A DNA stretch of 64,000 bases from assembly GCA_977017645.1 (NCBI GenBank), contig OZ360223.1, positions 74,214,001-74,278,000 of the forward strand, read 5' to 3'. Both the position numbers and the translations under genes were made by a program. Positions 1-56,612 of this stretch are shown one piece after another. A model generated the notes under the pieces. The model had not been told where the DNA came from. It worked only from the letters and a program-made list of their open reading frames with translations, and did no database searches. The DNA comes from Torpedo marmorata. Lineage: Eukaryota. Every line of letters starts with the position of its first letter. Position 1 is the first letter of the stretch.

Positions 1-954
1 ATGGCTGTAAATCTATAACCAGGCCCCTCCTCACCTCCAGGAGCTATGTCCATTTCCTCTTCAAAAATCCGAGTATGCCAAGTAATTTAAGCCTGCGGGG
101 TGGACAACGAACCTCCAACGTCTTCTTTCCTTTTCTATTTCAACCTTTTCTTATTCTATTCCTCTCCTTTCTTTCTTTTCGGGGGGTATTGGGTGGGTGG
201 GTTTCTCTTTGTTTGTAATTTTGTTGTTGTTTTTTAGTATAATAGTTAACAGGTGAATTATAGTGACTTCAATCCAACAAATAGTTACTTGGAGGCTAGG
301 TGAGATATCCGTTCATGACCCGTTTCAATTAATTTACTAACAAGTCCAATAGGTTCAAAAACTTTATTTTCACACGATGACTTGTAGCAATCTTCAATGA
401 CTTAAATATCTTCTTTAACAAAATATAAACAATTCTTGATAACGATGCTTAATAATGATTCTTTAAAACGTCTTTAAACTTCCTTTAAACGATTCTTTAT
501 AAATTCCTTTAAACGTTCCTTTAAACGATTCTTTCTAACACTCATTTAAACGGTCAATGAAAGCTATGGCGATCTCACTCACCCTCCTCAAGGTCGCCAT
601 ATTCTACTATACTTCTTCCCCGATTCGCGCATGCTCAAAGCGCATACTCCACCGCGCATGCTCCACGGCGCATACTGCACTCACTTCCCCACTACGCATG
701 CTCCAGCCACTTCCCCACTGCGCATGTTCCCGTCGGCACTCCCGCGCATGCGCAAAGTACTAAATAGGCCCAGCACAGCCTACTAATCTCCGTGTCTCCT
801 CCGAAACCCGCTGAGACCATCGGAACGCAGCGATGAAGGTAAGTAACTAAGCCTATGGCTCTTACACAAATATTATATTTGATAATGTATTACTTTTGTT
901 ATTAATAATATGTTTGGCTTAAAAAAATACAAATAAAATATTCCAAAAAAAAAA
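1..954 (+). mobile_element. 3' UTR and poly(A) end of an L1/Tx1-like LINE, split by a solo LTR at 259-866
   Basis: T-rich then G-rich tract (ttcttttc ggggggtattgggtgggtggg) like the LINE tail at 47790-47900; resumes after 866 and ends aaataaaatattcc + A-run at 945-954. Confidence 0.6.
259..866 (-). mobile_element. Solo LTR of the BEL/Pao-derived family found complete at 35224-40383
   Basis: Aligns end to end with LTRs 35224-35764 and 39845-40383 (t[g>a]tagtgacttcaatcc ... ggctcttaca); flanks tgaat/caaat fit a CpG-decayed 5-bp TSD CGAAT. Confidence 0.92.
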
Positions 955-12939: not shown

Positions 12940-14502
12940 TCAGATTTCAGATTTATTGTCAGAGTACATGCATGTCATGACATACAACCCTGAGATTCTT
13001 TTTCCTGCGGGCAAGGCAGAATTACCACTTATTGATAGTGCACAAAAACTGTACACAACGTACAGGTGTAAATACATAAAGAATTGTAAACAGATACAAA
13101 TGTAAACAAACTGACTGTGAAATACAGAGAGAATAAAAAAATAAATAAAGTGCACAAGTAAGAGTACATAAATGAGTCCCTAATTGAGTTTGTTGTTGAG
13201 GAGTCTGATGGTGGAGGGGTAGTAGCTCTTCCTGAACCTGGTGGTGCGAGTCTTGTGGCACCTATATATCTTTCCCGATGGCAGCAGCGAGAACAGAGCG
13301 TGTGCTGGGAGGTGTGGATCCTTGATGATTGCTGCTGCTCTCTGTCGGCAGCGTTCCCTGAAAATGTTCTCGATAGTGGGGAGGATTTTGCCTGTGATGT
13401 CCTGGGCTGGGTGCACTACCTTTTGGAGGGCTTTGCTCTCAGGGGTATTGGTGTCCCCATACCAGACCATGATGCAGCACACTTTCCACCACATATCTGT
13501 AGAAATTTGCCTGGGTTTCTGGTGTCATACCAAACCTCCGTAAACTCCTGAGGAAGTAGAGGCACTGACGTACTTTCTTCACAATGCCATTAGTGTGTTG
13601 GGTCCAGGAAAGATCCTCCGAGATAGTGACTCCCAAGAACTTAAACGTGCTCACTCTCTCCACCTCTGATCCCCCAATGATCACTGGATCGTATATCTCT
13701 GGTTTTCCCTTCGTGAAGTCAACAATCAGCTCCTTGGTTTTGGTGAAATTGAGTGCAAGATTGTTGTTGGTGCACCATTCAGCCAAGTTTTTAATCTCCC
13801 TCCTGTATGCTGACTCATCACCTTTCTTTATACAACCCACTACCGTGGTATTGTCGGCAAATTTGTAGATGGTGTTATTGTCGTACTGTGCCACACTTTC
13901 GTAGGTGTGAAGTGAGTAGAGCAGGGGGCGAAGGACACAGCCCTGCAGTGCACCAGTACTGATGGAGATTGTGGAGGAGATGTTCTTACCAATCCTCACT
14001 GATTGTGGTCTGGCGGTGAGGAAATCCATGATCTAATTACACAGTGAGATGTTGAGTCCCAGGTCTTGGAGTTTGCTGATCAGTTTTGAGGGGATGATGG
14101 TATTAAATGCCGAACTGTAGTCGATAAAGAGCATCCTGATGAATGCATCTTTGCTGTCCAGGTGTTCCAGGGCTTTGTGTAGGGCCAGTGAGATGGCATC
14201 CATCGTAGACCTGTTACTACGATAGGCGAACTGGAATATATCCATGTCATCTCTCAAACAGGAGCTGATATGCTTCAATACCAGCCTTTCAAAACACTTC
14301 ATCACTGTTGATGTAAGTGCTACTGGTCGATAGTCATTAAGGCAGGTTACTACACTCTTCTTGGGCACTGGTATCATTGACGCCTGTTTGAGACAGGTGG
14401 GTACCATGCCCTGCTGGAGTGAGATGTTGAAGATATCCGTGAATACCTTGGTAAGTTGGTCAGCACAAATTTTTAATACTCGGCCAGGTACTCCGTCAGG
14501 TG
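12940..14502 (-). mobile_element. Rex1/Babar-type LINE, 5'-truncated, disrupted RT
   Basis: [52 protein letters not shown]; tail caataaatctgaaatctg. Confidence 0.92.
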
Positions 14503-14718
14503 TCAGTAGGTTTCAATAATACCTCACAACACAGACATACCAAACTTACTAGCTACACTGCCAGCAGTTTCTTACCTAGCTCCATCAAGGGACATAATGA
14601 GAATTGTTGTGCTGCAAGGATAGAGGGTCAGAAGAATGTAGATTATTACACTTTTTGAAATGCCTCATTTTCTTAATAACTTAAATGTGCTTCAAGTATT
14701 GTTAGTTGATTTTGTTTT

Positions 14719-17143
14719 AATCAGAATCAGAATCTATTGTCATGAACAAGTCATGAAATTCGGTGTTTTGCGGCAGCATCATAGTGCAATTAACATTCAT
14801 ATTAACCATCTAACGAAATTACTATAAAAAATTATAAACAATAGTGCACGAAAAGTAAGGCAGTGTCTTTGGTTCATTGATTTTTCAGGAATCTGATGGC
14901 AGCGGGGAAGAAGCTGTCCTTGTGCCGTTGAGTGCTCGTCTTTAGGCTCCTGTACCTTTTTCCCGATGGAAGCAGAGTGAAGAGGGCATGGCCTGGGTGG
15001 TGGGGGTCTTTGAGGATAGAGGCTGCTTTTTTAAGACACCGCCTCATGTAGATGTCCTCGATGGAGTGAAGTTTGGTGCCTGTGATGTCACAGGCCGAGT
15101 TAACAACCCTCTGGAGTTTACTCTTGTCCTGGGAGTTGGCGCCTCCATACCAGGCAGTGATGCAACCAGCCAGAATGCTCTCCACGGTACACCTGTAGAA
15201 GTTTACGAGAGTCTTTGGTGTCATACCGAATCTCCGCAGACACCTCACAAAATATAGCCGCTGACGAGCCTTCTTTGTGATTGCATCAACGTGAATGCTC
15301 CAGGACAGATCCTCGGAGATGTTGACACCCAGGAATTTGAAGTTCTTGACCCTCTCCACAACTGAGCCCTCGATGAGGACTGGGTCATGTTCCTCATCCC
15401 CTGACTTCCTCCTGAAGTCCACAATCATCTCCTTGGTTTTGCTGACGTTGAGCTCAAGGTTGTTGTCATTACACCATTCAACGAGCTGATCTATCTCCCT
15501 CCTGTACGCTTCCTCATTGCCGTTTGTGATTCTGCCGACAACTGTGGTGTCATCGGCAAACTTGTGGATGGCATTGGAATTGTGCCTGGCCACACAATCA
15601 TGGGTGTATAACGAGTAGAGCAGTGGACTAAGCACGCATTCTTGGGGTGCGCCTGTGTTGATAATCAGTGAGGAGGAGACGTTGTTTCCGATTCGTACTG
15701 ACTGTGTTCTTCCGATGATAAAGTCAAGGATCCAGTTGCAGAGGGGGGTACAGAGGCCTAGAGTTTGTAGCTTCTTGACCAGCACTGAGGGAATAATAGT
15801 ATTGAAGGCTGAGCTGTAGTCAATGAAGAGCAGCCGTATGTATGAATTGCTGAATGGAGAGCCAGCGATATTGCATCTGCTGTGGAGCGATAGTGGCGAT
15901 AGGCGAATTGCAGTGGGTCCAGATATTTGCTTAGGTATGTGTTAATTCTGGCCATGACCAGCCTCTCAAAGCATTTCATCACAGTAGAAGTTAGTGCTAC
16001 TGGGCGGTAGTCGTTGAGGCAGCCCACACTACTCTTCTTGGGTACCGGGATGATTGATGCCCTTTTGAAGCAGGTGGGAACCTCTGACTGCTGCAATGAG
16101 AGGTTGAAAATGTCCGTGAACACTCCGGCTAGTTGGTTGGAGCAGATTTTCAATACCCTGCCAGGTACGCTGTCAGGGCCTGACGCCTTGCGAGGGTTCA
16201 CCCTCTTGAATGATGTTCTGACGTGGCCCTCAGAGACAGATATCACAGGGTCCTCAGCATTTTCAGGGATTCTAATAGGCACTGTTTTGTTCTTCTTCTC
16301 AAAGCGGGCATAGAAGGTGTTCAGCTCATCAGGTAGTGAAGCATCACAGCCGTCTATAGTGTTCGTCCTCGCTTTGTAGGCTGTAATGGCCTGCACTCCC
16401 TGCCATAGCTGGCGTGTATCTGTTTCTGTCTCTAGCTTCCTCCGGAATTGCCACTTTGCTTCAGAGATGGCCTTCCGCAGGCCGTGCCTGGACTTTTTGT
16501 AAAGATCCCGGTCCCCGGCCTTAAACGCCCTTGTTCTCGTCCTCAGCAGGTTGCGAATTCTCTGATTCATCCAGGGCTTCTGGTTGGGGAACACCCGGTA
16601 TTTGCGCGTGGGCACACACTCATCCACGCAGGTCTTGATGAAGTCAGTGACACCTGTTGCATATTCATTTAGGTCTATGGCTGAGTGCTTGAATATGTTC
16701 CAGTCCACCAATTCAAAGCAGTCCTGCAGACGCTCCTCCGCCCCCCTCGACCATACTTTCGCCGTCCTCACCACTGGTGCTGTGGTCTTCAGTCTCTGCT
16801 TGTACGCCGGGAGTAGAAGTACAGCCAGGTGATCAGACTTGCCGAAGTGTGGTCGTGGTATGGCTCGGTATGCGTTCTTCACGGTGGTGTAGCAGTGGTC
16901 GAGTGTGTTGGATCCCCTGGTCTCGCAAGTGATGTGTTGGTGGTAGTTTGTCAGTGACTTCTTCAGATTGTGTATTTCTACCTTTGTTATGTATTTCTAC
17001 CTTTGCTACATAAAAGGCACTGTTTGACCTGCTGAGTTCTCCAGCTTTTGTGTTTTTTACTTCAATCACGGTGTCTACAGATTTTCGTGTTTACTTCTTC
17101 AGATTGACCTGATTGAAGTCTCCCACAATGATCGGGAAGGCAT
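14719..17143 (-). mobile_element. Rex1/Babar-type LINE (EN C-terminus + RT), interrupted by a Penelope fragment at 16971-17092
   Basis: IIVGDFNQ (17110-17143), GKSDH, KASGPD, KFADDT; (ATTCTG)n tail at 14719-14735. Confidence 0.93.
16971..17092 (+). mobile_element. Penelope pLTR fragment with 14-bp TSD
   Basis: acttcttcagattg at 16957-16970 and 17093-17106; body matches the 11458 copy. Confidence 0.88.
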
Positions 17144-19400: not shown

Positions 19401-19648
19401 TTTTAGACATACAGCACAGTAACAGGCCATTTTGGCCCACAAGCCCGTGCCGCCCAATTACACCCAATTAACCCACACCCCCGGTACATTTTGAAGGGTG
19501 GGAAGAAACCGGAGCCACCGGGGAAAACCCACGCAGACACGGGGAGAATGTACAAACTCCTTACAGACAGTGAGGGATTTGAACCCTGGTCCCGATCACT
19601 GGCGCTGTAAAGGCGTTGCGCTATCCGCTACGCCAACTGTGCTGCCCC
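19401..19648 (-). mobile_element. tRNA-derived V-SINE (HE1-like)
   Basis: A-box tggcgtagcgg, B-box ggttcaaatcc, V-domain gagtttgtacattctccccgtgtctgcgtggg, CR1-like tail gtgctgtatgtctaaa. Confidence 0.9.
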
Positions 19649-25633: not shown

Positions 25634-25994
25634 GGAAGGGCTCAGAAGAATACGGAACTAATGCAGTCAAATGTGACTGGCCCAGATAGCTAACTTGGTC
25701 AGCATGAATGAGTTGGGTCAAAAGTCCTTTTCTGTGGTGTCTGACTCTATGCTGATTCTTCAATGAATGATCCAGCTTTTGTTGCATGCTTCGGATGTGT
25801 TTAGTGGATCTAAACTTATTGAAATGGTAGCTTAGATAAAATGTGGCAACACCTTTTACACAGAGGAATTCATTCTAATTGCTCTCTAATGCAACACTAA
25901 TTTGTGTGATGGAACCACATTGCTGTGCACTGGAGCAGTTGCCAGGGAATAGTAAATGTCGTGCACTTACATTTTCTTCAAATGAATTCACTTG

Positions 25995-28900
25995 TGATAC
26001 AAATTCAAACCAGCAACGACAGAAGACACAATGCAAAAGGGGTAATATTGAAATTTATATTTATTAAAGACAATTAAACATATAATTTCACAACAATTAA
26101 CCCCACTATAAACGTCTATAAACACTATTCTTATCTAAAAGGTGTGTGTGTGTGTAAAGCCCAGACCATTACAGTCTGTGCCCAACCCTCATGTAAAAAT
26201 GGAAAAACTTTCCCCAAAAACCCCAGGTCAGTCATAAAAACAAGTCAGTCCCAAAAATACAGTCCACAAAAATTCACTCTCTATGTTCAGGGTCCAAATT
26301 CAGCTCTGTGTGCTGGCAAGCAGCACTTCTTAATAAACGTTGGAGAGAGACAATGTCTGTTTATGCTTACGAATACTTGGCTTGCTTTTCTTCTCTGATG
26401 ACTTTCCCTTTTGGTGTTTTCACAAGGATTGCGAATTCAGATCCGTTTTGGATTAAGGCGTGTACTTGGATCTCACAGTCTGTTCTTCACAAAAGCTGCT
26501 CTCAACTCAGGATTTTGCTGAATCATCAAGAGGCCTTGTATTTCTCCCAGCCGTTTCCCCTGGGATACACAAGCCTGGATTTTTCTGATTCAAGAGACTC
26601 TGTGCTATTCTCCCAACTTCTTCTCTGGGATGCACAAGCCTGGATCCTGCTGAGTTCTTCCGCCTTTGCAACTCCAAAACTGCCACTGATTCAGTTTTCC
26701 ACGACTGAACTTCAGGCCTTTCTGTAGAGAGAGTTTTCTCCAGCTCCCTTTTTCAAAAGTTCCACACCCAAGTATATCTTTCCACAGTTTGTGTCCCCCT
26801 GGTGTCACTCTCCGGTAAATACAAGAAGTCCTGGGCAAGTTAACTCTTTCAGTACCAGGTACCAGTGTGTACTCCAAAAGACTTCATCCTTCCTGCTTAC
26901 CGTCCGCAGTCCAAATTTTAAGTCATGGTCCATAACACCTCCCACCCACAAAGAAAATTTTGGTCTGCAAAAACAAAATTTTGGAAATTGAGGTGTTACA
27001 ATATAAACAAAACCCACAATGTTCATCCACAAACACAAAATATGAACTATTTTCATTTATAAAGTTTAGCATCTAGAAAGACAATCAGCAATTACATTAT
27101 CTTTCACTTTCATATGTGTTATTACCAAATCATATTCTTGCAAAATTGGACTCCAATTCAACAACCGTCGATTCTTATTTTTCATTTTACAAAGAAAAAC
27201 CAATGGATTATGGTCAATATACACTATGAGTGTTTTTTGAGCTGTACAGATATAAACATCAAAGTGTTGTAGAGCCAACAACTCTTTTTCTATGGTTGAA
27301 TAATTCCTTTGATGATCATTGAACTTCTTCGAGAAGTAGGATACCGGATGGTCAATGTCCTCTTCGTTCTTCTTCTGTAACAGCACCGCACCCACAGCTT
27401 CATCGCTGGCATCCACGACTAAAGAAAACGGCTGTTCTAAATTAGGTGACTTAAGCACAGTTTGGTGGCATAACATAGCTTTCAATTTGACAAATGCTTC
27501 CTGACAACCTGTCGACCATACAAATTTTTCTCTCTTTCCAAGAAAATTTGTGAGAGGGAGCGCAATATCAGCAGTTTTTACAGAACTTGCGGTAGTAGCC
27601 AATCATTCCCAGGAACCTCCTCAGAGTTTTCTTACCAGTTGGAACAGGGAACTCGGAAATAGTCACAACCTTTGCCTCTACTGGTGCCAAATTCCCCTGG
27701 CCTACTACATAACCCAGAGAATTAACAGTCCCACGACCCTCTCTGAAACTGGTTTTATCTGTCTCCTCCTTACCCGTCAATAACCAGTACCTCTGGTAAA
27801 TGTTCAGTCTCTTTGTGCGGCACCTGTTCAAAATATGGCTTAATCATATTCACATGACAGACCTGTGTGTCTCGTCTGCGATTAGGTGTTTCTATGACAT
27901 AGGTGACATCATTAATTTTTGACTTAACTCTATAGGGTCCTGAAAATCTAGCCCTAAGAGGATTTGAATGGATGGGAAACATAACTAATACATTCTCACC
28001 AGGTTTAAAACTTCTCATCTTAGCCTTTCGATCATACCAAACCTTCATTCTCTGTTGAGTGGCCTTTAAATTCACCTTTGCCATCTCACAAGCCCGATGC
28101 AACCGATCCTTAAATTTGGAAACATAATCTAACAGATTTAAATGCACATCACTATTAATCCACTGTTCTTTTAATAATCTTAAAGGACCTCTCACCTCAT
28201 GTCCGAAAACTAACTCGAATGGACTAAAACCAAGTGATACTTGGACAGACTCCCTCGTTGCAAATAACAACAAATGAACCCCCTCATCCCAATCCTTTTC
28301 CTTCTCACAACAATAGATTCTAATCATGGTTTTCAAAGTCGAATGGAACCTCTCCAAGGCCCCTTGACTTTCTGGATGGTACGTAGAGGATACAATCTGT
28401 TTAACTTCCAGTCCATCAACCACTTGTTGGAAAACGCCTGACATGAAATTACTGCCCTGATCTGATTGAATTTCCCTTGGCAAACCTACCAAGGTGAAAA
28501 ACTTTATCATAGCCTTTACAATCGATTTTGCTTTAATGTTTCTCAGAGGAATGGCCTCTGGAAATCTGGTGGCTGCACACATAATTGTTAACAAATACTC
28601 ATTCCCCGCTTTGGTTTTGGGCAATGGGCCAACACAGTCCACAATCACTCTCGAGAAAGGCTCACTGAAAGCAGGGATAGGTTGCAAGGGTGCCACCGGG
28701 GGACCCTGATTAGGTTTACCCACCACCTGACAAGTGTGACAGGCCCGGCAAAAGCTTACAACCTCCCTTCTCAAACTGGGCCAATAAAATTGTTTTCTTA
28801 CCTTCCTTATAGTTTTCTTCACCCCAAGGTGACCACCTAAGTGTGTGCTATGAGCCAAAGTTATTATTGCATCCCTATATACTTTAGGGATCACAACCTG

Positions 28901-31900
28901 CTGCACGACTGCCCATTATTCATTGGCAGGAACATCACAATGTCTCCACTTTCTCATCAACACCCCATCTTTTTCATAATAACCCACTGGCACCTCTTTA
29001 ATCTCCTCTTCAGGGAGAATCTTATCCCTCACCTCAGCAAGATCAGGATTGTCCTTTTGCCTTGCTGTTAGCTCCTGTCGGGATAGTGACAAATCTGTGC
29101 CTTTTGGTGTCTTATCAGTGGATGGGTGTAACACAGAAGATTGCTCAACCTTTTCCAGGTGTTCTTGATTATCACTGACTTTTTCTTTCACCAAGTTATT
29201 TTCCACTGCCTTCTCTACAGTGACATTTTTCTTAGACATGGCCCTGGTTATGGCACATGCCGGATAAATATCAGAGTCTTTCTCTGACTTATCAATGACT
29301 GGCTTCGTGGTCATTCTCACTGCAGGAACTACTTTACCCTTGGCCAAGTCATTGCCTAGCAACAGTGAGACTCCTTCTACTGGCAACTCTGATCTCACTC
29401 CTATTATAACAGGTCCTTCCACCAAGTCTGAGTCCAACACTATTTTGTGCAAAGGAATGGACTCAACATCACCACCAATTCCTTTAATTAAATTCATGTC
29501 ACCGGTGTCAGTAGCTTCACAAAATTCCAAGACACTATCTAACACAAGTGACTGAGCAGCTCCAGTATCTCGCAAGATTTTCACTGGAACTTGTTTTGAT
29601 CCTGCCTTAACTGAAACAAAACCATCAGTCACAAAAGGTTTAAATATATCCCTAACTTTGTCAGTAAATTTATTTCCTTCCTGGGTGTTATGCCTCTTCT
29701 CACTCTGAATACAAGCATTAGGTGTTGCATCCTTTTCTCTCTTCTTTTTCAACACTGGACAGATTGCTAGCATATGACCAGCCTTCTTGCAGTCGTGGCA
29801 AATGGGACCCGAGTGGTTTTCCCTTATCCACTTTCTTTCATCCCTTTCCTTAACACCACTTCCAAATTTACTTTCCACTTGCTTGGGATTATCCACATTG
29901 ACCTTTTGGAATATTCTGCCTGACGTCCACTTAGGCTTGTGGGTTAAAGCATATTCATCTGCTAACTTAGCTGAATTTTGCCAAGTTTTCACCTCCTTTT
30001 CATCTAAGTATGCCTTAATATCCTCAGGAACACACCTTTTTATCTCCTCGATTATTATCAATTCTCTCAATTGATTGTAATCATTGTTTACTGCCTTAGA
30101 TGTGCACCACCGGTCAAAACACACAACCTTTTAATAGGCAATCTCTGTGTAAAATTGGGTTGCTGATCTTTTTAAATTTCTAAACTTTTGTCTATAAGCC
30201 TCTGGAACTAACTCATAAGCCTGGAGTATAGCCTTTTTCACCGTTTCATAATCAGCAGCTTGCTCCGTGGTAAGAGTAGAATAAGCTTGCTGAGCTTTTC
30301 CTTTTATTACACTTTGTAACATAAGAGACCATTGGTTTAGTGGCCATTTTAATTTCACAGCCACCTTCTCAAAATGCTGGAAGTACTTATCTATTTCTGC
30401 CTCCTCAAATGGAGGGACCAACCTAACTTCTTTACCAGCCAAAAACCCCTCAACAGGATGACAAATTTTATCTTTGTGCTCTTGTTTCCTCTCATTTTCC
30501 AACTTTATCTTTTCCAGCTCATTTATCCTATTTTTCTCCTTGTTCTCTAATTCTATTCTCTTTTGTTCCCTGGCTACCTCCAATTCTAATTTCCTTTGTT
30601 CCAATTCCATGTTCTTTCTTCGAATTCCCTGTCTAATTTCTTTTGTTCCAATTCCCTGTTCTTTTGTTCCAATTCCAATTTCTTTATTTCCAACTGTATG
30701 TTTTCAGAAGTTTTACCCTTGGGAAACTGCTCTAACACGCTCTCCTCAAACTTTTTTTCTTTTATATAGTATTTGACTATTTTTCTCCCAATCTCTGCCT
30801 TTTTCATAGATGGTTTTACAGAAGCAATGCCCAACTCTGTTGCTATAGCCACTAACTGTTCCTTTTTCGCCTTTTTTAAAAGTATCAGGTTCAGGTGATT
30901 CCAAAATATTTTCTACATCCATTGTTGCTGGTTTTTCGTTACACACACACTAGCTTTTTAATGATCTTTACAAAAGGAATGTCTTAAACCAGACTGGATT
31001 CCTTCAATTACCAAGATGTATTTTGATTCAAATCCAAGGACAAGCCCCCAATTTTGTTACAAATTCAAACCAGCAACGACAGAAGACGCAATGCAAAAGG
31101 GGTAAAATCGAAATTGATATTTATTAAATACAATTAAACATATAATTTCACAACAATTAACCCCACTATAAATGTCTATAAACACTATTCTTATCTAAAA
31201 GGTGTGTGTGTGTCTGTGTGTAAAGCCCAGACCATTACAGTCTGTGCCCAACCCTCATGTAAAAATGGAAAAACTTTTCCCAAAAACCCCAGGTCAGTCA
31301 TAAAAACAAGCCAGTCCCAAAAATACAGTCCACAAAAATTCACTCTCTATGTTCAGGGTCCAAATTCAGCTCTATGTGCTGGCAAGCAGCACTTCTTAAT
31401 GAACGTTGGAGAGAGACAATGACTCTTTATGCTTACGAATACTTGGCTTGCTTTTCTTCTCTGATGACTTTCGCTTCTGGTTTTTTCACAAGGATTGCGA
31501 ATTCAGATCCGTTTTGGATTAAGGCGTGTACTTGGATCTCACAGTCTGTTCTTCACAAAAGCTGCTCTCAACTCAGGATTTTGCTGAATCATCAAGAGGC
31601 CTTGTATTTCTCCCAGCCGTTTCCCCTGGGATACACAAGCCTGGATTTTTCTGATTCAAGAGACTCTGTGCTATTCTCCCAACTTCTTCTCTGGGATGCA
31701 CAAGCCTGGATCCTGCTGAGTTCTTCCGCCTTTGCAACTCCAAAACTGTCACTGATTCAGTTTTCCACGACTGAACTTTAGGCCTTCATGTAGAGAGAGT
31801 TTTCTCTTGCTCCGTTTTTCAAAAAGTTCTACACCCAAGTATATCTTTCCACAGTTTGTCTCCCCCTGGTGTCTCTCTCTGGTAAATACAAGAAGTCCTG

Positions 31901-32004
31901 GGCAAGTTAACTCTTTCAGTACCAGGTCCCAGTGTGTACTCCAAAAGACTTCATCCTTCCTGCTTACCGTCCGCAGTCCAAATTGTCAGTCATGGTCCAT
32001 AACA
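25995..32004 (-). mobile_element. Gypsy (Gmr1-like; integrase before RT) provirus with RT core deleted
   Basis: LTRs 25995-26937 and 31055-32004, TSD CTTG, PBS-Pro-like at 31032-31050, PPT gggtgggagg; gag CCHC (CHDCKKAGHMLAIC), PR LRDTGA, IN HHCC + DDE (27770-28906), RT end and RNase H (27066-27740). Confidence 0.95.
31032..31050 (-). promoter_or_regulatory. Primer-binding site, tRNA-Pro-like
   Basis: tgggggcttgtccttggat versus canonical TGGGGGCTCGTCCGGGAT, 4 nt inside the 5' LTR. Confidence 0.8.
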
Positions 32005-32523
32005 CTTGTCAGAAAAACAGATAAAACCAAATGATTAACAGTATTGTTCTGGCAATGCAGTGGACTTCAGTCAGTAATTACATCATCCGTGGCTAAATGC
32101 ACAGCACCAAGTTTTACCACCATATTAACTCTGGTTTTCATAAAGAAAATAGGGATGCTATGGATACATGTATGCCGTAAGGTATACAAGCGAAGACCTT
32201 GCTTATAAAGGTGGATTAAAAATTATGCTTTGGTTGTGTAACACCTTAGTCAGAGCCCACTAAGAATTCTGCATTTGGAGCACTTCGAGGAATAAACTGG
32301 ATGTGGAACTGATTTAACAGAATTGCAACTGGGTTTACAATGAAAAATAATGACAGTACTTTGCATTTAGTTGTCTCGTTGCTTGAATTAAGAACATTGC
32401 TGGATAATCTACTTGGGGTTTAAATGTTAAAAGACATCCGACAAACTATGAAAACTATTCCTTCTGATGGAGGGTCAAGTTAACAACGGTAATCTCAGAA
32501 CGAGAACCAGAATTTAAATTATA

Positions 32524-34520: not shown

Positions 34521-36306
34521 GTACATCAATAGAAGTCAGGGGCACCAATACCCTTGAGCGTATTGTTTGGGTGTTTATGAAGTATACCATGGAATGCAAT
34601 CTTGATATTATACTCATTTTAAATAAATAATTATTAAATGTTTGAAATGCAAGATTGATTGGCTAGATTTGTCTTGACCTATACCTGAGTGGGAGAACAG
34701 TTGGAAAGCGAAGCTGAGCCAAATATCAACTCAGCCATAGTTTGATTGTAGAATTCAGGATTTAATCAAAAATACACATTTTTAAAAAAATATGCGCAGT
34801 TCAAGCAATATCTCTGTGTTCTCAAATACATTTCGAATTGTGGTGGGACCCAAATTATCAGGATAGCAGGTGCACAAACTAACGTTAACTTAGATGTTAA
34901 AATGAGTCAGGACAAGTCAAAGAGCATGGAAAATCTGACAGACTTAACTGCATTTCTTTTAATGCAAGTCTGACAAGCAGAGGATGAACTCAAGGCATGA
35001 TTTGGTGGATGGAACTGGAATATTATAGTCAGAACAGAAAAGTGGCTGGGGATGGGGGCAGGACAACAGCTCAAGGTACCAGCGTACAGATGCTACAGGC
35101 AAGATAGTGGAGGAAGGAAGAAAGGTGGGAGTGCTGCAATTTTGATTCAGGGAGACATCACAGCAATACTGAGAGAGAATATTCTTGGGGATAATCCAGT
35201 GAAGCTATATGGGTGGAAAATAGTGTAGTGACTTCAATCCAACAAATATTCACTTGGAGGCTAGGTGAGATATCTGTTCTTGACGCGTTTCAATTGATTT
35301 ACTAACAAGTCCAATAGGTTCAAAAAATTTATTAACACACGATGACTTGTAGCAATCTTCAATAACTTAAATATCTTCTTTAACAAGATGTAAACAATCC
35401 TTGATAACGATGCTTAATAATGATTCTTAATAACGTCCTTTAAAACAATTCTTTATAACGTCTTTAATAACGGTCAATGAAAACTATGACAATCTCACTC
35501 ACCCTCTTCTAAGTCGCCATATTCTTATAATACTTCTTTCCTGAATAACGTGCATGCTCCACAGCGCATACTCCACCACGCATACTCCACCGCGCATACT
35601 CCAGCCACCTAACCCACTGCGCATGCGCCCGTCGTTACTCCCGCGCATGCGCAGAGTACTCAATAGGCCTAACACGGCCTACTAAACTCCACGACTCCTC
35701 CGACACCCACGGTATACATCGGAACATCACGATTAAGGTAAGACATGAGCCTTTGGCTCTTACACCGGCCCCTAATTATTATAATGAGACGCAATGTCTT
35801 AAATAATAATTACACAATCAATTACAAATAATAATAACCATATAACATTCAAGCAATATACAAATCTTCTTTCTTCTTTCTTCATAAGACCAGAGTTTAC
35901 CATCACTCTGAATCAACAAAAGTCTGTAACCTGTGTAGTGTACAAAAACAACAAAATACAGTCAGTTCGTACTTATCAAACTTCTTTTATCTTTAGAATC
36001 TTTGAGTTAGAACGTCGACCAGTAAACCTCAAATCTTCCTCAGACAAAATAGATAGTTTTTCTTTTGAATTTAACACGAGGTACTTCTTCAGCATGTCGT
36101 TTCTCATATGAAGAATTTAAACTCTTAGAACCAGAATTTGAATATTTATCTGATCCTCTCGATTTTAATAAACGAGTCTCTTTAACCTTTCCTGCATTCA
36201 AATCTTTCAATAAGAAAGTACTTCTCTCATTATCTTCCGATAAATTAATAACTTGACCTGAAGTGAAAATATCATGTGATACATTGGTACTTCTATTGTC
36301 AACCCT

Positions 36307-36577
36307 GCTGCGGTAAACTTGAAATTTTCAAATTTCTTCATCTTGCTTGTTACATTGCTGCAATGCAATATCACTTTCTTTCTGCATTGTTAGTAGCTAG
36401 GTCTTCAATTTACATTCTTGATTGTTTTCTATAGTCAGCTGTTTTGTGTTATTAACCAATAACTTGTTCTCTTTCAAAATATGAATCTCTTCCTCCAACC
36501 TTTAACATCTTGATAATGCTGAATCTCTTTCTTCAATAACTATTTATTTCTTCAATAACTTTGTCTGCTGTAACCTC
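36307..36577 (-). pseudogene. MIPOL1: MIPOL1-like coiled-coil fragment captured inside the BEL element
   Basis: VIEERDSALSRC*RLEEEIHILKENKLLVNNTKQLTIENNQECKLKT*LLTMQKESDIALQQCNKQDEEI*KFQVYRS; about half identical to recalled vertebrate MIPOL1. Confidence 0.75.
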
Positions 36578-36844
36578 TGAGCTACAAAATCTACTTTCAC
36601 ATTTGTTCTCAGTCATTTGCTTTATTCCTGCCTCAGATTCAATTACACAGGAATGATCACCAGTATTATTTGCAACATCTTCTAATACTTCATTTTCATC
36701 CATTTCTGATGAAAATAATTCCTTCAATGTTGTGTTAAATACCTTTGATTTATTTTCATATTGATCTATTTTGTTTTCTTCAAAAGTGAATTTCTTATTT
36801 ACAATCTTTTGCTGTTCCCTTAACTCATCAAATTTCACAACCAA

Positions 36845-39201
36845 AATTCTGTTAACATTTATCGCTAACTGCTCCTATGCAATATCATTATTTCTTTCCA
36901 ATGGTCCATTAATTGTCCAACCAAGCTTGGTTCTACTCCATATTACTTCTAGTGGTTCCAAAACCTTTGGTACATCTGAACCAATCAGCATTTCTATCTC
37001 AGAATTAACATCAGGTAAATAAACCTTCCACAGATAAAACAAATGAGAGATATCATTTTGATGCAAATGTTTCCTCCATGCACAAGCATAGTCTTCTGAG
37101 TATATAAACTTGGAAGATCACAACATTTTTCGTCATGCAATCCAGAAACCTCTAATCCTGAAACAATGCTGGTTTCAACGAGCTTTTCTTGTCCCATGGT
37201 TTTCAACATAATTCTTGACCTTCTTCCTTGAATATTAAGTTTGTTCATTAGTCCCACCATGCAAAAAGATGCAGTGCTGCCTGGGTTGAGAAATGCGTAT
37301 GTATGTACTGTTGCATTCCTGTTCTTGATCTTGTACAGGCACTATTGAAAGTTTGCAGTTATCCACACCAGCCCCAGTAAGACCACTTGTCTGAACCGAG
37401 GTTATAACATTGTTTTCTGATGTTTCCTTTGTTTCTATTTGCTCCTTTTCCAATTCCTTGTTTCTTTGATGGATATGCAAAATTATAGGATGCTTCAAAT
37501 TGCATATGTTACAGTTAATTCACTTCTCGCAGTTTTTACTGATGTGCCCTTTGCACAAACAGCTAAAACATATTCCATTTTCCTTTAAGAAAGCGATCTT
37601 CTCATTATGTTCCTTCTTTTCCAACTGTAAACACATTTCCAAAGCATGTCCACCTTTACAGAACAAACAACTCTTCTCATTAGTCAAACTTTCCTTTTCC
37701 TTATTTACTTTACCTTTTTCTTTATTTACACCTGACACATTAGTAGCAAAAGTACTCCTTTTCAATTTTGGACTAGGCTGTGAGTTAGACCTCCATACAT
37801 CTTTGTTCCCCATTGAATTGTCTCTGGTATTTCCATATATGGGATCTGTTTCAATGTACACCTGTCGTTGAAGAAAATCTACCAAATTCTTTAAGGTAGC
37901 TCGTTGATCGTAATTTTCTTGTAAATCACAAGCCAAATTTCTCCATCTATCCCACATCTTGTAAGGTAATTTATCTAAGATAATTCGCATATTAGCAAGC
38001 ACGTCAAGCTCACGAATATTATCAATATCTTCCATGGCATTACAACATCCTCTTAAAAAGAGAGTGTATGCTTGTAGAGCCTTTACATCATTCGATTTTA
38101 TTGATGTCTATTTAAGAGCTTTATCCATATTAGCTAAAGCAATTTGATGCTTGTTGCCAAAATGCTGTTCTAGTAAAAACTTAGCTCTTTCTAATCCTCT
38201 TTCCGTGGACATGTGTTTTGACAACTCTTTACAAGTTCTCTTGGATGTCCTTCTGTGAACATTTCCAAATAATAAAGAAATTCATCAGGGTCTTGCCATT
38301 TATTTTCAATATTGCTTCTAAAAGATCTCATGAACGCTTGGTACTGAAGTGGATTACCATCAAAAGTTTGAATCTCTTTCTTGGGCAAAGAAGAGAGAGA
38401 CTGTAACTGAATCAATGATGCAGCGATTTCATTTTGTCTTCCTATAGATGATAATACATTGCTCTGTTCACCGCCTCTTGTTACAAGTAATGATCTGGAA
38501 ACCTCACTGGTGTAGTTTCTCCCGTATTTCTGATGCTTGACTTGAATGCCAAAGAATCTGCATCGTTTGACTGAACCCACGTCGCCGCCTTGTCTTCGGA
38601 TGTTAGCACTGGTACGTGACTTGATAACACTATGCTCTTGAAGGCTTTGTCCTTGTATTTGCATGTCTTGTACCCGTGGTACTAAAATATCTACCTTTTT
38701 GGTTGATTTATTTTCCTGTGGCTCTTTTTTAAAATATAACTTCTTATCATCGCACACTTTAGATAATTTACTCCGAGCACCAGACACCATTGAGCCTTCT
38801 AATACCTTTATTTTGGCTCTGGCAATAGCAATGTTTGCTTCCAGCTCCTGCTGCTCCTTTCTCTGCCTTAGCTGCTTCTGTTCTTGCCTTAGCTGCTGCC
38901 TCAGCTGCTCCTCTTTTTGCCTTAGCTGCTGCCTCAGCTGCTCCTCCTTTTGCCTTAGCTGCTCCTCTTGTCCTTCTAAAATATGTTTATCCTTAAGCAA
39001 ATTTTGTTGCGCAAGAAGAGTGGCCAAGTCAACTTCAACCTTTATACGTGACGATGCAGAACTTGAAGTGTAAGAAACTCTGGAGCTCGAACCAGAAGAA
39101 CTTTGTTTGCTTCTCCTGCTTTCAACATTTGAGACACTGTCATATGCTTGTATTTCGTCCTGCAGGTCAGATGTTGTCTTCTTACTTACCTCTTTCTCCA
39201 A
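36845..39201 (-). pseudogene. BEL/Pao gag-protease, frameshifted
   Basis: ORF-track pieces 38191-39201, 37520-38035, 37235-37498, 36994-37260 and 36875-37066 carry BEL gag and aspartic protease motifs. Confidence 0.88.
38864..38970 (-). repeat. Coding tandem repeat (~33-bp unit) in gag
   Basis: Encodes QEEQLRQKEEQLRQQLRQKEEQLRQQLRQEQKQLRQ. Confidence 0.85.
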
Positions 39202-39529
39202 TTTGAATTGTACATCTTTTCACTTCATCCTCTTCGTTTTCTTCATCACCATTTGATGACACATTTTCAGCCATTTCCACATTGCTGTCTTCATGTTCAG
39301 TCATTGTCTTCTGCAATGAGTTTGCAATGTCTTCATACCCATCAACCGAACCCGCTGCCTCTTCTACCTTTGCCAGCTTCAGTCTTGCAAAGAGAATACT
39401 TTTATTTCCACTTGTATCTAGTTTATGTCGCTTCAATTTTTCTTTGAGATCCGCAACCTTCATGTCTTCAATACGATGTTCCTCAACAGCAACATCAGCG
39501 ACTGCTGCGTCAGCTGCTGCTGCGGCCAT
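39202..39529 (-). pseudogene. SAP-domain (SAFB/SLTM-like) N-terminal extension of gag
   Basis: MAAAAADAAVADVAVEEHRIEDMKVADLKEKLKRHKLDTSGNKSILFARLKLA followed by an acidic tract; ATG at 39529. Confidence 0.8.
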
Positions 39530-42500
39530 TTTACTCGTCTTGTTCCACCGTCCTTCGAGAATACACAACACTAGCCAAATCAACAGTCAATAATATCGCT
39601 GATTTTCAAGAAATGGTTTCTCCAACGTATTTATAGGACACTTTGCAATAAGATTAGAAGCTCTAAATCCCTCTCTGGCTGTTACTCATGGCAGATGGAT
39701 GTGAATTACAAACTGCCCCTAACTCGAGGCATTTCCAAAATGGCCGCCATTTTATTTTAAATATCAGTCCAAAGCACAGAGAGCTTATTCTATCTTCTTT
39801 CCTTCCATTTTCTGTTCCAAACAATAAGTTTTCATTGACTAAATTGTAGTGACTTCAATCGAACAAATAGTCACTTGGAGGCTAGGTGAGATATCTGTTC
39901 TTGACGCGTTTCAATTAATTTACTAACAAGTCCAATAGGTTCAAAAACTTTAACACACGATGACTTGTAGCAATCTTCAATAACTTAAATATCTTCTTTA
40001 ACGAAATGCAAACAATCCTTGATAATGATGCTTAATAACGATTCTAAATAATGTTCCTTTAAAACAATTCTTTATAACGTCTTTAATAACGGTCAATGAA
40101 AACTATGACGATCTCACTCACCCTCCTCTAGGTAGCCATATTCTTATAATACTTCTTCCCTGAATAACGCGCATGCTCCACCGCACATACTCCACCGCGC
40201 ATACTCTACCGCACATACTCCAGCCACCTAACCCACTGCGCATGCACCTGTCGACACTCCCGTGCATGCGCAGAGTACTCAATAGGCGTTGCACGGCCTA
40301 CTAAACTCTGCGACTCCTCTGACACCCGCAGTATACATCGGAACGCCGCAATTAAGGTAAGACACGAGCCTTTGGCTCTTACAAATAGAAATAAGAAGGG
40401 GTAAGTACTTTGAATAGTCAGCAGCAGTTAGAGGGGCAAATCTGTCGGGAGATTGCAGACAGCTGTGGGAATAACAATGTCATAACACTTGGTTACTTCA
40501 ACTTCCACCCCATCCAAAGGGCCTGGATGGGGTGGAATTCATCAAATGTGTCCAAACAATATGTCGACATAAAGAGGGTGCAACATTGGATCCTCTAAGG
40601 AAATATGGGAGGGCAAATGATGGAGATGCCATTTGGATAGCACTTTGGAACTAGTCACCAAAATTAATTGTAAAATAAATATGGAAAAAATAGGACTGGT
40701 CTGCAATTTCCAATCCTAAATTTGGGTGTCTAATTTGGATGCCATTAAACAGAAATGTGAAAAGATTAACTGAAATAGGCTGTTTTCAGTTAATGAGGCA
40801 TTTAGCCCATTAATTATACCCAATGACTTGGTCTCCAAATTCTTGTGGCAACAAATTCCACAGATTCACACTCATCACTGTTTGAAAGGGACTTCCTTTT
40901 ATTCTGAAGCTTGCCCTCTTGCTCTAGACTCTCCTACAACTGGAAACAACTTTTCCACGCCCACTCTATCTTGCTGTTTCAAAATTTGGAATGTTTCAGA
41001 GATTCCCCCTTATCCTTTTAAACTCCAATGAGTATAGGCCCTAGGATTTCCAAATCTGCTACTTCTTTGCCCATTCTCCCAGCCTATCCAAGTCCCTCTG
41101 GAGACTCCCTACTTCCTCAACACAACCCACTCCTTCACCTCTCTTCGTATCGTCCATAAACTTGGTCACAAAGCTGTCAAAGTGTGACAAGTTGCAGACC
41201 CAACACTGACGCCTGCTGAACACCACTAGTCACTGGCAGCCAGCCAGAAAAAGGCCTCCTTTATTCCCACTCTATTCCTGCTACCTGTCAGCCAATCTAC
41301 TATCCATGCTGGTACCTTGCCTGTAATAACACATAATTCTACCTTGTTTAGCAGACTCATGTGTGGCACCTTGTCAAAGCCTTTCTGAAAATCCAAGGAA
41401 ACAACATCCACTGACCCTCCTTTGTCCGTCCTCAAAGAACTCCAACAGATTTGTAAGCCAAGATCTCCCCTGAAGGAAACCTTGCTGACTTCAGCCAATT
41501 TTATCTTGTGCTTTCAAGTACTCTGAAACCTTTACCTTGAGAATTTTGCCAACCACTAAAGTGATGTAAACTGGTCTACAATTTCCTGGCTTTTGCCCTC
41601 TCCCTTCTTAAAGAGTTGAGTGACAAGAGTGGATTCATCATTTAGGCAATTGGAATCAAGCCAGTCCTTTAAGCAATGTAGAGGATGTAGGAGTCCACTT
41701 AAGAGGGATAATAAAGAGGTAAATGAGGAGGTATGAGATGGCTCTGGCAGATAAGATTAAGGAGAATCCTAATAGATTCTGAAGTATACTAAAGGTATAA
41801 GAGCAATTGGAGAAAGAATATAGCCCTCTAAAGATAATCAAAGTTGTTAATGTGTGGAGCCACAGAATGTGGGGAAGTCCTGAACATGTATTTCTCATGT
41901 GTATTTACTGTGGAAAAAGACATGGATATTCGGGAACCTGGGGAAGTATATTGCCATGTATTGAAGAGAGACCCTGTTACAGAAGAGGAGGTGCTTGAGG
42001 TCTTAAAACACACAAAGTTAGTAGATAAATGTCGGGGCCTGATCAAGCATATCCTCCGACATCATGGGATGCTCAAGAAGAAATTGCAAGAGCATTGGCA
42101 GAGATATTTTCATCATTATTAAACATGATTGAGACATCAGAAGACTGGAGGATGGCTAATGTTGTGCCATTATTTAAAAAATGCTGCTCAGACAAGCCAG
42201 GGGACTACTGGCCAGTGAGCTTAACGTCAGTTTTTGGTAAGTTACTGGAGGGGATTCTAAGAGACTGAAAGCCAAGGACTGGTTAGAGACAGTGCATGGG
42301 ACATCATGTCTCACAAATATGACTGAGTTTTTTTGAAGATGTGATGAAGAAGATTGATGAGCACAGGGTGTAAATGTTGTCTACGACTTTTGAAAGGCCT
42401 TTGACAAGATCCCCGCATGGTCAGCTAGTCCGGAAGGTCAGATCGCATGCATCCAGGGTGAGCTAGTCAATTAGATATAGTGTTAGTTTTATGGTGGGAG

Positions 42501-54798: not shown

Positions 54799-56612
54799 GA
54801 GACACAGCACTACCCCGCAGGGTCCTACCACCCAGCCCGACTGCCGATGGCTCCCTACAGGCTTTAAACGTCCTGTTAAAGAGCCAACAGTGTTTTATTT
54901 AAAATCCTGCACTGTGGGGTCGAGGGCCAAGAGGGCGGCACCTGTGAACCCCCTGAATGGGCCTTGAGGGGGTTGCGGACTCCGGGCAAGCAGTGGACCG
55001 GTGCAAGGCACCAGTAATTGGGAGAACACCCACCCCGTTCAGAAGGAGAAGCAGAGGAGTCGGCCCTAAGGATGGTGAAAATGGTGGCGGACCAATGAGG
55101 GGGTCTGTGGCTGAAGGACACACACAGGCAGTGAGCTGTTGGCAACTTGCGGCCAAGGAACCCACACAGGCTAGGGGCTGCTGGCAACTTGAGGTTTAAT
55201 GGCTCACACCAGTCTGTTGGCTGCTGGAGTTTAAGACTCCAGTGCTGGAGACTGGCTCATGAGAACTAGGTATCAGAACCAGGAGTTAAGATGATGCTGA
55301 GGGCAAGGAGGGCTCCCTAATGGTCCTGGGTGCTGGAGGCTTCCTCGTCGTGTTGGAGGTTTGGATCTGGACTCGGGTTGCTAATGGTTTGAACTGAACT
55401 GGAGTCCTTGACTTTCTCATTGGAAGACCACAGTCAGTATGAATTGGAAACAACATCTCCTCCTCACTGATTATCAACACAGGCGCACCCCAAGGATGCA
55501 TGTTTAGCCCACTGCTCTACTCATTATACACCCATGACTGTGTGGCCAAGCACAATTCCAATGCCATCTACAAGTTTGCCGATGACACCACAGTTGTCGG
55601 CAGAATCACAAACGGCAATGAGGAAGTGTACAGGAGGGAGATAGATCAGCTCATTGAATGGTGTAATGACAACAACCTTGTGCTCAACGTCAGCAAAATG
55701 AAGGAGATGATTGTGGACTTCAGGAGGAAGTCAGGGGAACACGACCCAGTCCTCATCGAGGGCTCAGTAGTAGAGAGGGTCAAGAACTTCAAATTACTGG
55801 GTGTCAACATCTGTACTGGTGCAATCACAAAGAAGGCTCGTCAGCGGCTATACTTTGTGAGGTGTCTGAGGAGATTTGGTATGTCACCGAAGACTCTCGT
55901 AAACTTCTACAGGTGTACCGTGGAGAGCATTCTGGCTGGTTGCATCACTGCTTGGTATGGAGGCGCCAACTCTCAGGACAAGAATATACTCCAGAGGGTT
56001 TTTAACTTGACCTGTGACATCACAGGCACCAGACTTCACTCCATCGAGGATATCTACAAGAGGTGGTATCTTTAAAAAGCAGCCTCTGTCCTCAAAGACC
56101 TCCACCACCCAGGCCATGCCCTCTTCACTCTGCTACCATCAGGAAAAAGGTACAGGAGCCTAAAGATGACCACTCAACGGCACAAGGACAGCTTCTTCCC
56201 CGCTGCCATCAGATTCCTGAATAATCAATGAACCAAAGACACTGCCTTACTTTTTGTGCACTATTATTTATATATTTTTTATAGTAATGTCGTAAGATGG
56301 TAATAATATGAATATTTGCACTATGATGCTGCCGCAAAACACCGAATTTCATGACTTGTTCATGACAATAAATTCTGATTCTGAGTCTTGTGTGGCTGCA
56401 GAGACTGTGAGAGCGCTGGAGGCGAATTTAGGGACTCTCGGTGACTCTGGGGGGCTCTCTTTTGCTTCTTTTTCTCTGACTGTAAGGGGAGCTGCGCAAT
56501 GTTAATGCAAATGACAAGTCTTTGTCTGCCTTATGGCAGACTAAAGGCAATTTTGTGTAATACTGTATTACATTTCTGTTTTATTACATGACAATAAATA
56601 GTATCTCATCTG
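54799..56612 (+). mobile_element. ORF-less retroposon (copy 1) split by a Rex1 insertion
   Basis: Colinear with the reverse complement of 61688-62510; ends tgacaataaa. Confidence 0.75.
55407..56382 (+). mobile_element. 5'-truncated Rex1 LINE, same subfamily as 14719-17143
   Basis: Near-identical RT C-terminus and 3' UTR; tail aattctgattct; TSD gagtc at 55402-55406 and 56383-56387. Confidence 0.92.

Follow-up and report, generated by a model that had tools for sequence, protein, structure and literature searches.

Acutely transforming retroviruses carry host coding sequence in frame with Gag, have lost replication genes and need a helper. Related arrangements have been described among long terminal repeat (LTR) retrotransposons. 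The maize element Bs1 is an LTR element in which fragments of three unlinked host genes form a chimeric open reading frame (ORF) (PMC13317346, PMC5131818), and the animal LTR-mediated retrocopies of Tan et al. (2016, PMC5131818) are partial, intron-less mRNAs that replace internal ORFs. For these retrocopies, that paper reports microsimilarity at template switches, multi-gene chimeras, further non-autonomous cycles and one mosquito case in a BEL element; the word 'circular' is absent from its main text. TR-GAG elements, as presented in part of PMC8704663, retain LTRs and a Gag ORF, have lost reverse transcriptase (RT) and integrase, and depend on an autonomous partner for their mobility. Pseudogenes derived from circular RNA (circRNA), with a non-colinear exon junction, no poly(A) and LTR association, were described by Dong et al. 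(2016, PMC4897178), who list 33 high-confidence pseudogene copies of mouse circRFWD2 and term the retroposition mechanism mysterious. Here we analysed a 64,000-nt stretch of Torpedo marmorata DNA (contig OZ360223.1, positions 74,214,001 to 74,278,000; hereafter the window, to which all window coordinates refer), which holds at 35224-40383 on the minus strand an LTR element that has features in common with all of these systems.

This element is a decayed copy of a non-autonomous BEL/Pao derivative in which pol has been replaced by pieces of host genes. As proposed in the original prediction, which was made from the window alone, the element is 5,160 nt long, has paired LTRs and is flanked at both ends by a 5-bp target-site duplication (TSD), AATAG; the LTR alignment showed 497 identical bases out of 537 aligned (Kimura two-parameter distance (K2P) 0.079). 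The gag-protease (gag-PR) region of the family shares 81-86% nucleotide identity with pol-bearing relatives that have a Pao peptidase match (hereafter helpers). When ten ORFs of the window were scanned, the SAP domain (Pfam PF02037, E 1e-9) was the sole match above cutoff, and none of the ten matched RT, RNase H or integrase, again in line with the prediction. Since these enzymes are also absent from an unbroken 1,354-aa copy of the family and present in its relatives, the element is a non-autonomous derivative. In a sister copy, DUF1759 was matched at E 9e-7 and DUF1758/Asp_protease_2 below cutoff, and a search of the ESM Atlas returned only gag-like leads, all below 0.9.

Not all details of the prediction held in the same way. 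The provirus had been called intact; its LTR pair and TSD are present, but the window copy is without ~210 nt of cargo (the host-derived part) and ~135 nt of 5' region that are present in other copies, and it aligns to an unbroken natural relative in six pieces and three frames with 10 stop symbols. Its protease catalytic codon is altered, as in 5/23 copies of subfamily A, to which it belongs; that this codon is a trait of subfamily A was considered and set aside, because a recurrent CpG hit is likely. TSDs of 5 bp were detected by scan in 4 of the 19 A copies that have an LTR pair. The SAP domain of Gag had been described as SAFB-like. The domain is there, but the one helper scanned has matches to SAP, RT, Pao peptidase and integrase, which makes SAP native to the Gag of the autonomous family and places it outside the host-gene capture; the only PDB match, the MKL1 SAP (E 0.0035), does not support a specific SAFB origin. 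The peptide KKICILLE (35871-35848), which had been likened to the integrase terminus, is not the end of the integrase; it lies ~105 nt past the native stop in a 3' untranslated region (UTR) shared with helpers. Intact helpers end their integrase in ..CLLLETEEL, and the KKICILLE-type 3'UTR comes behind it. A purine-rich stretch does precede the 3' LTR, in helpers as well, but it is not a pure polypurine tract. The single LTR near the start of the window is related to the element, as had been claimed (475 identical bases in an alignment of 532), although no clear TSD flanks it.

We turn next to the 1.1 kb between protease and 3' LTR. The prediction had recognised a MIPOL1-like segment here, and this homology is real, but the 1.1 kb derive from three genes rather than one. 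In a homolog search, the frame behind the protease of a natural copy matched MIPOL1 as two pieces in reversed order, and in a genome-wide MIPOL1 search, many of the 68 scored candidates had residues 295-385 placed immediately behind residues 437-553. In the older subfamily B, the stretch preceding MIPOL1 is BRCA1 (13/13 matches, 12 of them to named BRCA1 homologs) and the stretch after it is Elongin A (ELOA; PF06881, E 7e-16). Pfam gave no match for the BRCA1 and MIPOL1 parts of the cargo, both of which were named via homolog searches. The corresponding host loci are unlinked, with MIPOL1 on contig C40, BRCA1 on C61 and ELOA on C41; host BRCA1 was located by a search with the non-captured part of the gene, after a BRCT family search had not located it. 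For all three host genes the closest homologs are those of the electric ray Narcine. An annotated Narcine BRCA1 isoform (P0013) opens with an apparent retroelement gag in place of the RING exons, which is probably a gene-model error.

B copies join four BRCA1, six MIPOL1 and five ELOA exons without introns, at 92-98% identity with the host exons, and the subfamily A copy in the window retains relics of all three genes at 71-91% identity. These intron-less, multi-exon pieces point to a capture of the cargo via RNA. The first switch lies inside RT, past its catalytic motif, and the last one leads back into the final integrase codons. All six outer capture ends lie mid-exon, away from the exon edges, and four capture junctions have shared words of 2-6 nt, one with filler (judged by eye in three older copies). 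Cargo length fell from ~2 kb in older copies to 1.1 kb in later ones, and the Elongin_A Pfam domain of the older copies was deleted in later subfamilies.

The family is very large. Copies were counted with exact 22-23-nt patterns across the 6.2-Gb genome, for which reversed-pattern controls gave 0 matches. The junction between protease and BRCA1 had 17,786 exact matches and the MIPOL1 back-splice junction described below 4,419, against 282 for the continuation from protease into RT in the related helper lineage. The cargo pattern matched 8/31 A, 6/6 C and 0/12 B copies; it therefore misses many A and all B copies, and 17,786 is a floor. The helper pattern matched 8/10 related helpers and 0/5 from an older pol lineage, and the cargo-to-helper ratio of ~60:1 thus refers to the related helper lineage only; Pao peptidase gave 6,618 first-look candidates in all. 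Four cargo copies were present in 440 kb of host-gene DNA picked independently of the element. That the window holds the only copy, or that the 1.1-kb segment was inserted after integration, was rejected; the family has at least 17,786 copies. Four cargo copies lie in the introns of MIPOL1 itself (C40:64323001-64643000), a density that does not clearly exceed the genome-wide mean. Whole elements also occur in tandem arrays, with five cargo junctions spaced by 4,964 nt at C1:1497815-1517693 and three helper motifs spaced by 7,325 nt at C22:96504145-96518817. Contigs from 4/4 sequencing runs (four studies, four organism codes) cover the junction position, which hints at a spread among relatives but carries no information on expression.

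We next consider the order of the MIPOL1 exons. In the host, a GT donor closes exon h, and an AG acceptor precedes exon b, which lies 206 kb upstream; in the element, the h donor is fused to the b acceptor exactly at these splice sites. With a relaxed probe, this junction was found in 20/20 copies (L001-L020) and at 14/14 B loci (L023-L036). Both of its edges are in phase 2 and exons b-h sum to 780 nt, so that a b-h circle would contain no stop. The captured part comprises ~590 nt, from mid-f round to early d, and in the six copies examined MIPOL1 matches were confined to exons b, c, d, f, g and h, with no outside sequence and no poly(A). The sequence marks of a circRNA-derived pseudogene (a splice-exact non-colinear junction, no outside sequence and no poly(A)) are thus all found. 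From the exact join of a late donor to an earlier acceptor, we infer that the MIPOL1 piece most likely stems from a back-spliced circRNA. At host exon b (L046) there is a tandem acceptor (NAGNAG), of which the element took the first AG, and it is here that related proteins vary by a single residue. One B copy (L028:5836-6945) contains a 405-nt perfect tandem repeat and hence the back-splice junction three times; as its units are 100% identical, the repeat seems to stem from a recent local duplication and not from rolling-circle copying.

Two other sources of this junction have to be weighed. Weighing against a circular source is that the same junction would arise from trans-splicing, or from a tandem duplication of exons b-h that was later lost. 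A linear RNA, either the mRNA of such a duplication allele or a trans-spliced mRNA, is expected to give an identical splice-exact join, and because the captured ~590 of 780 nt are less than one circle length, the element offers no rolling-circle repeat as proof of a circle. A present-day tandem duplication was rejected, as each host MIPOL1 exon is single within 320 kb and the flanking exons have one genome match each. The linear source would therefore require that a ~200-kb duplication was lost; moreover, both capture ends fall inside b-h, as a circle predicts. We regard a linear source as quite unlikely. Far less credible still is that the h-b join was itself a template switch of RT on linear MIPOL1 mRNA, at a shared word of 2-3 nt that coincided with the exon edges by chance. 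The exon ends do share AG plus one further matching base, and the remaining capture junctions are template switches, but donor and acceptor must be hit at once (by rough arithmetic ~1 in 1,000 or less), and all six outer capture ends miss the exon edges. A circRNA template remains the preferred reading.

The relation between the cargo carriers and their helpers was examined next, and an autonomous partner, which the prediction had called for, is indeed present: of nine pol loci analysed, five contain an uninterrupted ORF (1,797-2,134 aa). Copy ages are relative only and rest on LTR divergence, which was 0.086-0.091 for B (3 copies), mostly 0.04-0.09 for A (19/24 copies with a pair) and 0-0.03 in 7/8 helpers, the latter having been chosen for long ORFs. 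Two C copies, met by chance in MIPOL1 introns, have LTR pairs that are 97.1% and 99.7% identical. The younger one has an unbroken 1,354-aa SAP-Gag-PR-BRCA1-MIPOL1-ELOA frame, so that an open frame through the cargo exists in a natural copy. This copy is 90-100% identical per 250-nt bin to the young helper L074 on both sides of the cargo, versus 79-94% per bin to the window copy. In a protease tree of 36 rows, pol-bearing copies stood in three places among the cargo carriers, and a single clade of cargo carriers was rejected (approximately unbiased (AU) test, p 2e-5); rows left out of the trees were two short B, one short C, and one short and four protease-less pol rows. The 90-100% helper identity outside the cargo suggests that backbone and helper keep recombining, and it is likely that the element moves using RT and integrase of its intact relatives. 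Together with the in-frame host exons behind gag-PR in a multi-copy family, this bears out the helper-dependent element that had been proposed.

What keeps the cargo in the element can be approached through its substitutions. Comparison of the commonest codons of subfamily A with the host exons gave 128 differing sites over 325 codons, C being lost with a strand bias. Under this spectrum, 84 codons with a changed amino acid were observed and 89.6 expected (p 0.12), with 41 versus 41.2 in the BRCA1 part and 34 versus 34.5 in the MIPOL1 part, while there were 0 stops where 8.0 were expected (p 0.0002). The two natural C copies have one stop each against 9.5 and 10.5 expected, in both cases in the ELOA part; changes private to single copies include 26 stops in 365. 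By our own tally, 13 of 15 shared non-splice capture or deletion junctions are in frame (binomial 3e-5 at a chance of one in three), the two exceptions lying near the 3' end. A McDonald-Kreitman (MK)-type test for protein constraint in the cargo was not significant (p 0.19), and the five synonymous and 14 non-synonymous gag-PR changes specific to the A branch are too few for a test. Near-neutral amino-acid change, excluded stops and a kept frame suggest that the cargo is probably a translated spacer and not an oncogene-like product. The likeness to transforming retroviruses that had been drawn thus extends to structure but not to function, as cargo residues evolve close to neutrally; selection for the function of a transduced host protein was not found in the BRCA1 and MIPOL1 parts. 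In the cargo (35998-36814), the changes that a lineage has accumulated relative to the host show a strand bias (C>T 42, C>A 21, G>T 0) that the copy-private changes do not share, and cargo composition has drifted toward the C-poor make-up of newer helpers.

Several observations weigh against a pure spacer. The ELOA relic shows mild amino-acid constraint (9 versus 14.2 expected, p 0.005, 1 of 16 subset tests), and an overall pN/pS of 0.61 would allow for some selection at the protein level. When coding DNA is deleted at short repeats, the frame may tend to be preserved; the junction test is inflated by the choice of B copies through a protein search; and the copies studied were mostly top similarity hits and not a random sample. 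In addition, the ELOA-to-integrase junction is out of frame in 5/6 older copies, and one late junction in 18/31 A copies. One rival reading takes the BRCA1-MIPOL1-ELOA tail for a functional protein, which might assist particle assembly through its coiled coil or serve as a decoy for host factors, and to which the element would owe its 60-fold advantage, in the manner of a transduced oncogene. Such a role would explain a frame maintained through three waves, the retention of the coiled MIPOL1 segment and the back-splice junction in all subfamilies, and the mild ELOA constraint; it is at odds with the neutral counts for BRCA1 and MIPOL1, the MK-type result and the loss of the Elongin_A domain, and we judge it unlikely. 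Alternatively, the host pieces could act at the RNA level as a shield, since silencing the element would also strike BRCA1 and ELOA. Gene-capture conflict of this kind is a known idea in plants, and the older copies are 92-98% identical to the host exons. However, the more numerous later subfamilies have drifted 13-17% from the host genes, which erodes cross-targeting, and a shield leaves the open frame unexplained; we therefore think it very unlikely, and return to the translated spacer as the preferred explanation.

Altogether, these data are consistent with the following scheme. Inside virus-like particles, template switching by RT would have picked up spliced pieces of BRCA1, MIPOL1 and Elongin A, the MIPOL1 template being a back-spliced circRNA. 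The resulting element would be mobilised in trans by RT and integrase of intact relatives, and repeated recombination would renew LTR-gag-PR from the current helper while the cargo was inherited and shrank. Selection would keep the cargo translatable rather than conserve its protein, because ribosomes must run near the 3' end if the Gag-PR mRNA, which is also the genome, is to escape premature-stop decay. Such an escape would be the likely reason for the open frame; retroviral RNAs are reported to confront this problem (PMC2925335). We have good confidence in the full explanation (a non-autonomous BEL/Pao element, three-gene capture, a circRNA source, helper exchange and spacer selection), more in its architecture and RNA-mediated capture, and less in the decay-escape step. 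In its broadest form the account is probable: a circRNA was reverse-transcribed into an LTR element together with BRCA1 and Elongin A mRNA pieces, and the Gag-PR-cargo parasite, among the most abundant elements of the genome, came through three or more waves by exchanging its backbone with that of a ~60-fold rarer helper, its cargo being selected as a read-through spacer. It would then provide both a dated circRNA fossil and a direct mechanism of circRNA retroposition.

Coordinates of the element and of the related LTR in the window are listed below.

Table. Parts of the BEL/Pao-derived element and related features in the window.
Feature	Position	Strand	Evidence or remark
5' LTR (TG...CA)	39845..40383	-	LTR alignment and TSD
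3' LTR	35224..35764	-	92.5% identity with 5' LTR
TSD AATAG, left copy	35219..35223	+	
TSD AATAG, right copy	40384..40388	+	
SAP domain close to Gag start (ATG 39529); also in pol-bearing helpers	39377..39472	-	
BEL-type gag: SAP, coiled repeat, capsid-like part, three Cys/His knuckles	37460..39529	-	frameshifts and stops in window copy
BEL aspartic protease region	36815..37400	-	frame broken, catalytic codon altered in window copy
BRCA1-derived cargo, two spliced host exons	36546..36814	-	nucleotide identity 71% and 85%; 59% aa identity to Narcine BRCA1
MIPOL1 exons f (tail), g and h, no introns	36308..36554	-	85-88% identity to host exons
Back-splice junction, MIPOL1 exon h donor to acceptor of earlier exon b	36307..36308	-	
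MIPOL1 exon b, 5' part	36192..36307	-	82% identity to host
ELOA-derived cargo, relics of two host exons	35998..36189	-	83% and 91% identity
Remnant of last integrase codons and native family stop	35976..35997	-	stop at 35978-35976
BEL 3'UTR (with chance KKICILLE reading) and purine-rich stretch ahead of 3' LTR, common to helpers	35765..35975	-	
Related single LTR	259..866	-	89% identity with element LTR; TSD not clear

Elsewhere in the window there is a second LTR element, of Gypsy type (25989-32024, minus strand), with LTRs that are 91-97% alike and a SCAN-like gag. Its integrase lies ahead of RNase H, an order that we take to be Gmr1-like, and most of the RT core seems missing. ARAGORN reported a tRNA-like match at 19564-19642 (minus strand) within a dispersed repeat, probably a short interspersed element (SINE) head, and long inverted copies (94%) of a dispersed repeat lie ~40 kb apart at 13711-15730 and 55405-56279.

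The family has several implications. It suggests a concrete route for circRNA retroposition, namely packaging and template switching inside an LTR element, which PMC4897178 left open, and it would keep the record of an ancient back-splice in thousands of copies that can be dated. It is a vertebrate counterpart of Bs1 and TR-GAG and, provided that its copies are full length, makes up at least 0.1 Gb (17,786 x ~5.5 kb). The family is also a natural setting in which to test whether translation can be selected for while the protein is not. In this lineage, annotation, the mapping of reads and the calling of circRNAs will be confounded by tens of thousands of BRCA1-, MIPOL1- and ELOA-like sequences, and the BRCA1-like copies may feed small RNAs against BRCA1.

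Compared with the acutely transforming retroviruses, the present element is germline-resident, with no env seen and no sign of selection on the cargo protein. Maize Bs1, as far as the cited texts describe it, differs from the present case, a vertebrate BEL/Pao element with a back-spliced piece and no fewer than 17,786 copies, which exchanges its backbone with helpers that are still live and whose cargo looks like a frame-keeping spacer. The retrocopy cases considered from PMC5131818 are young single loci, whereas this family outnumbers its helper ~60-fold. Relative to the circRNA-derived pseudogenes presented in PMC4897178, the junction here lies within a complete LTR element, between template-switch junctions and in frame, in 4,419 exact copies. 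The TR-GAG elements, in the portion of PMC8704663 considered, are from plants, with a Copia-derived example and without host cargo, whereas here a BEL element has kept its protease and is extended by cargo. Closer precedents may exist, for instance in the LTR surroundings of the circRFWD2 copies, and a literature search over titles and abstract openings, which had most subscription journals and Repbase/Dfam outside its scope, found no description of a BEL/Pao family with BRCA1, MIPOL1 and ELOA. The precedents are thus known singly; what is unusual is the combination of a circRNA-type junction, a triple in-frame capture that includes BRCA1, a very high copy number and a continuing exchange with a rare helper.

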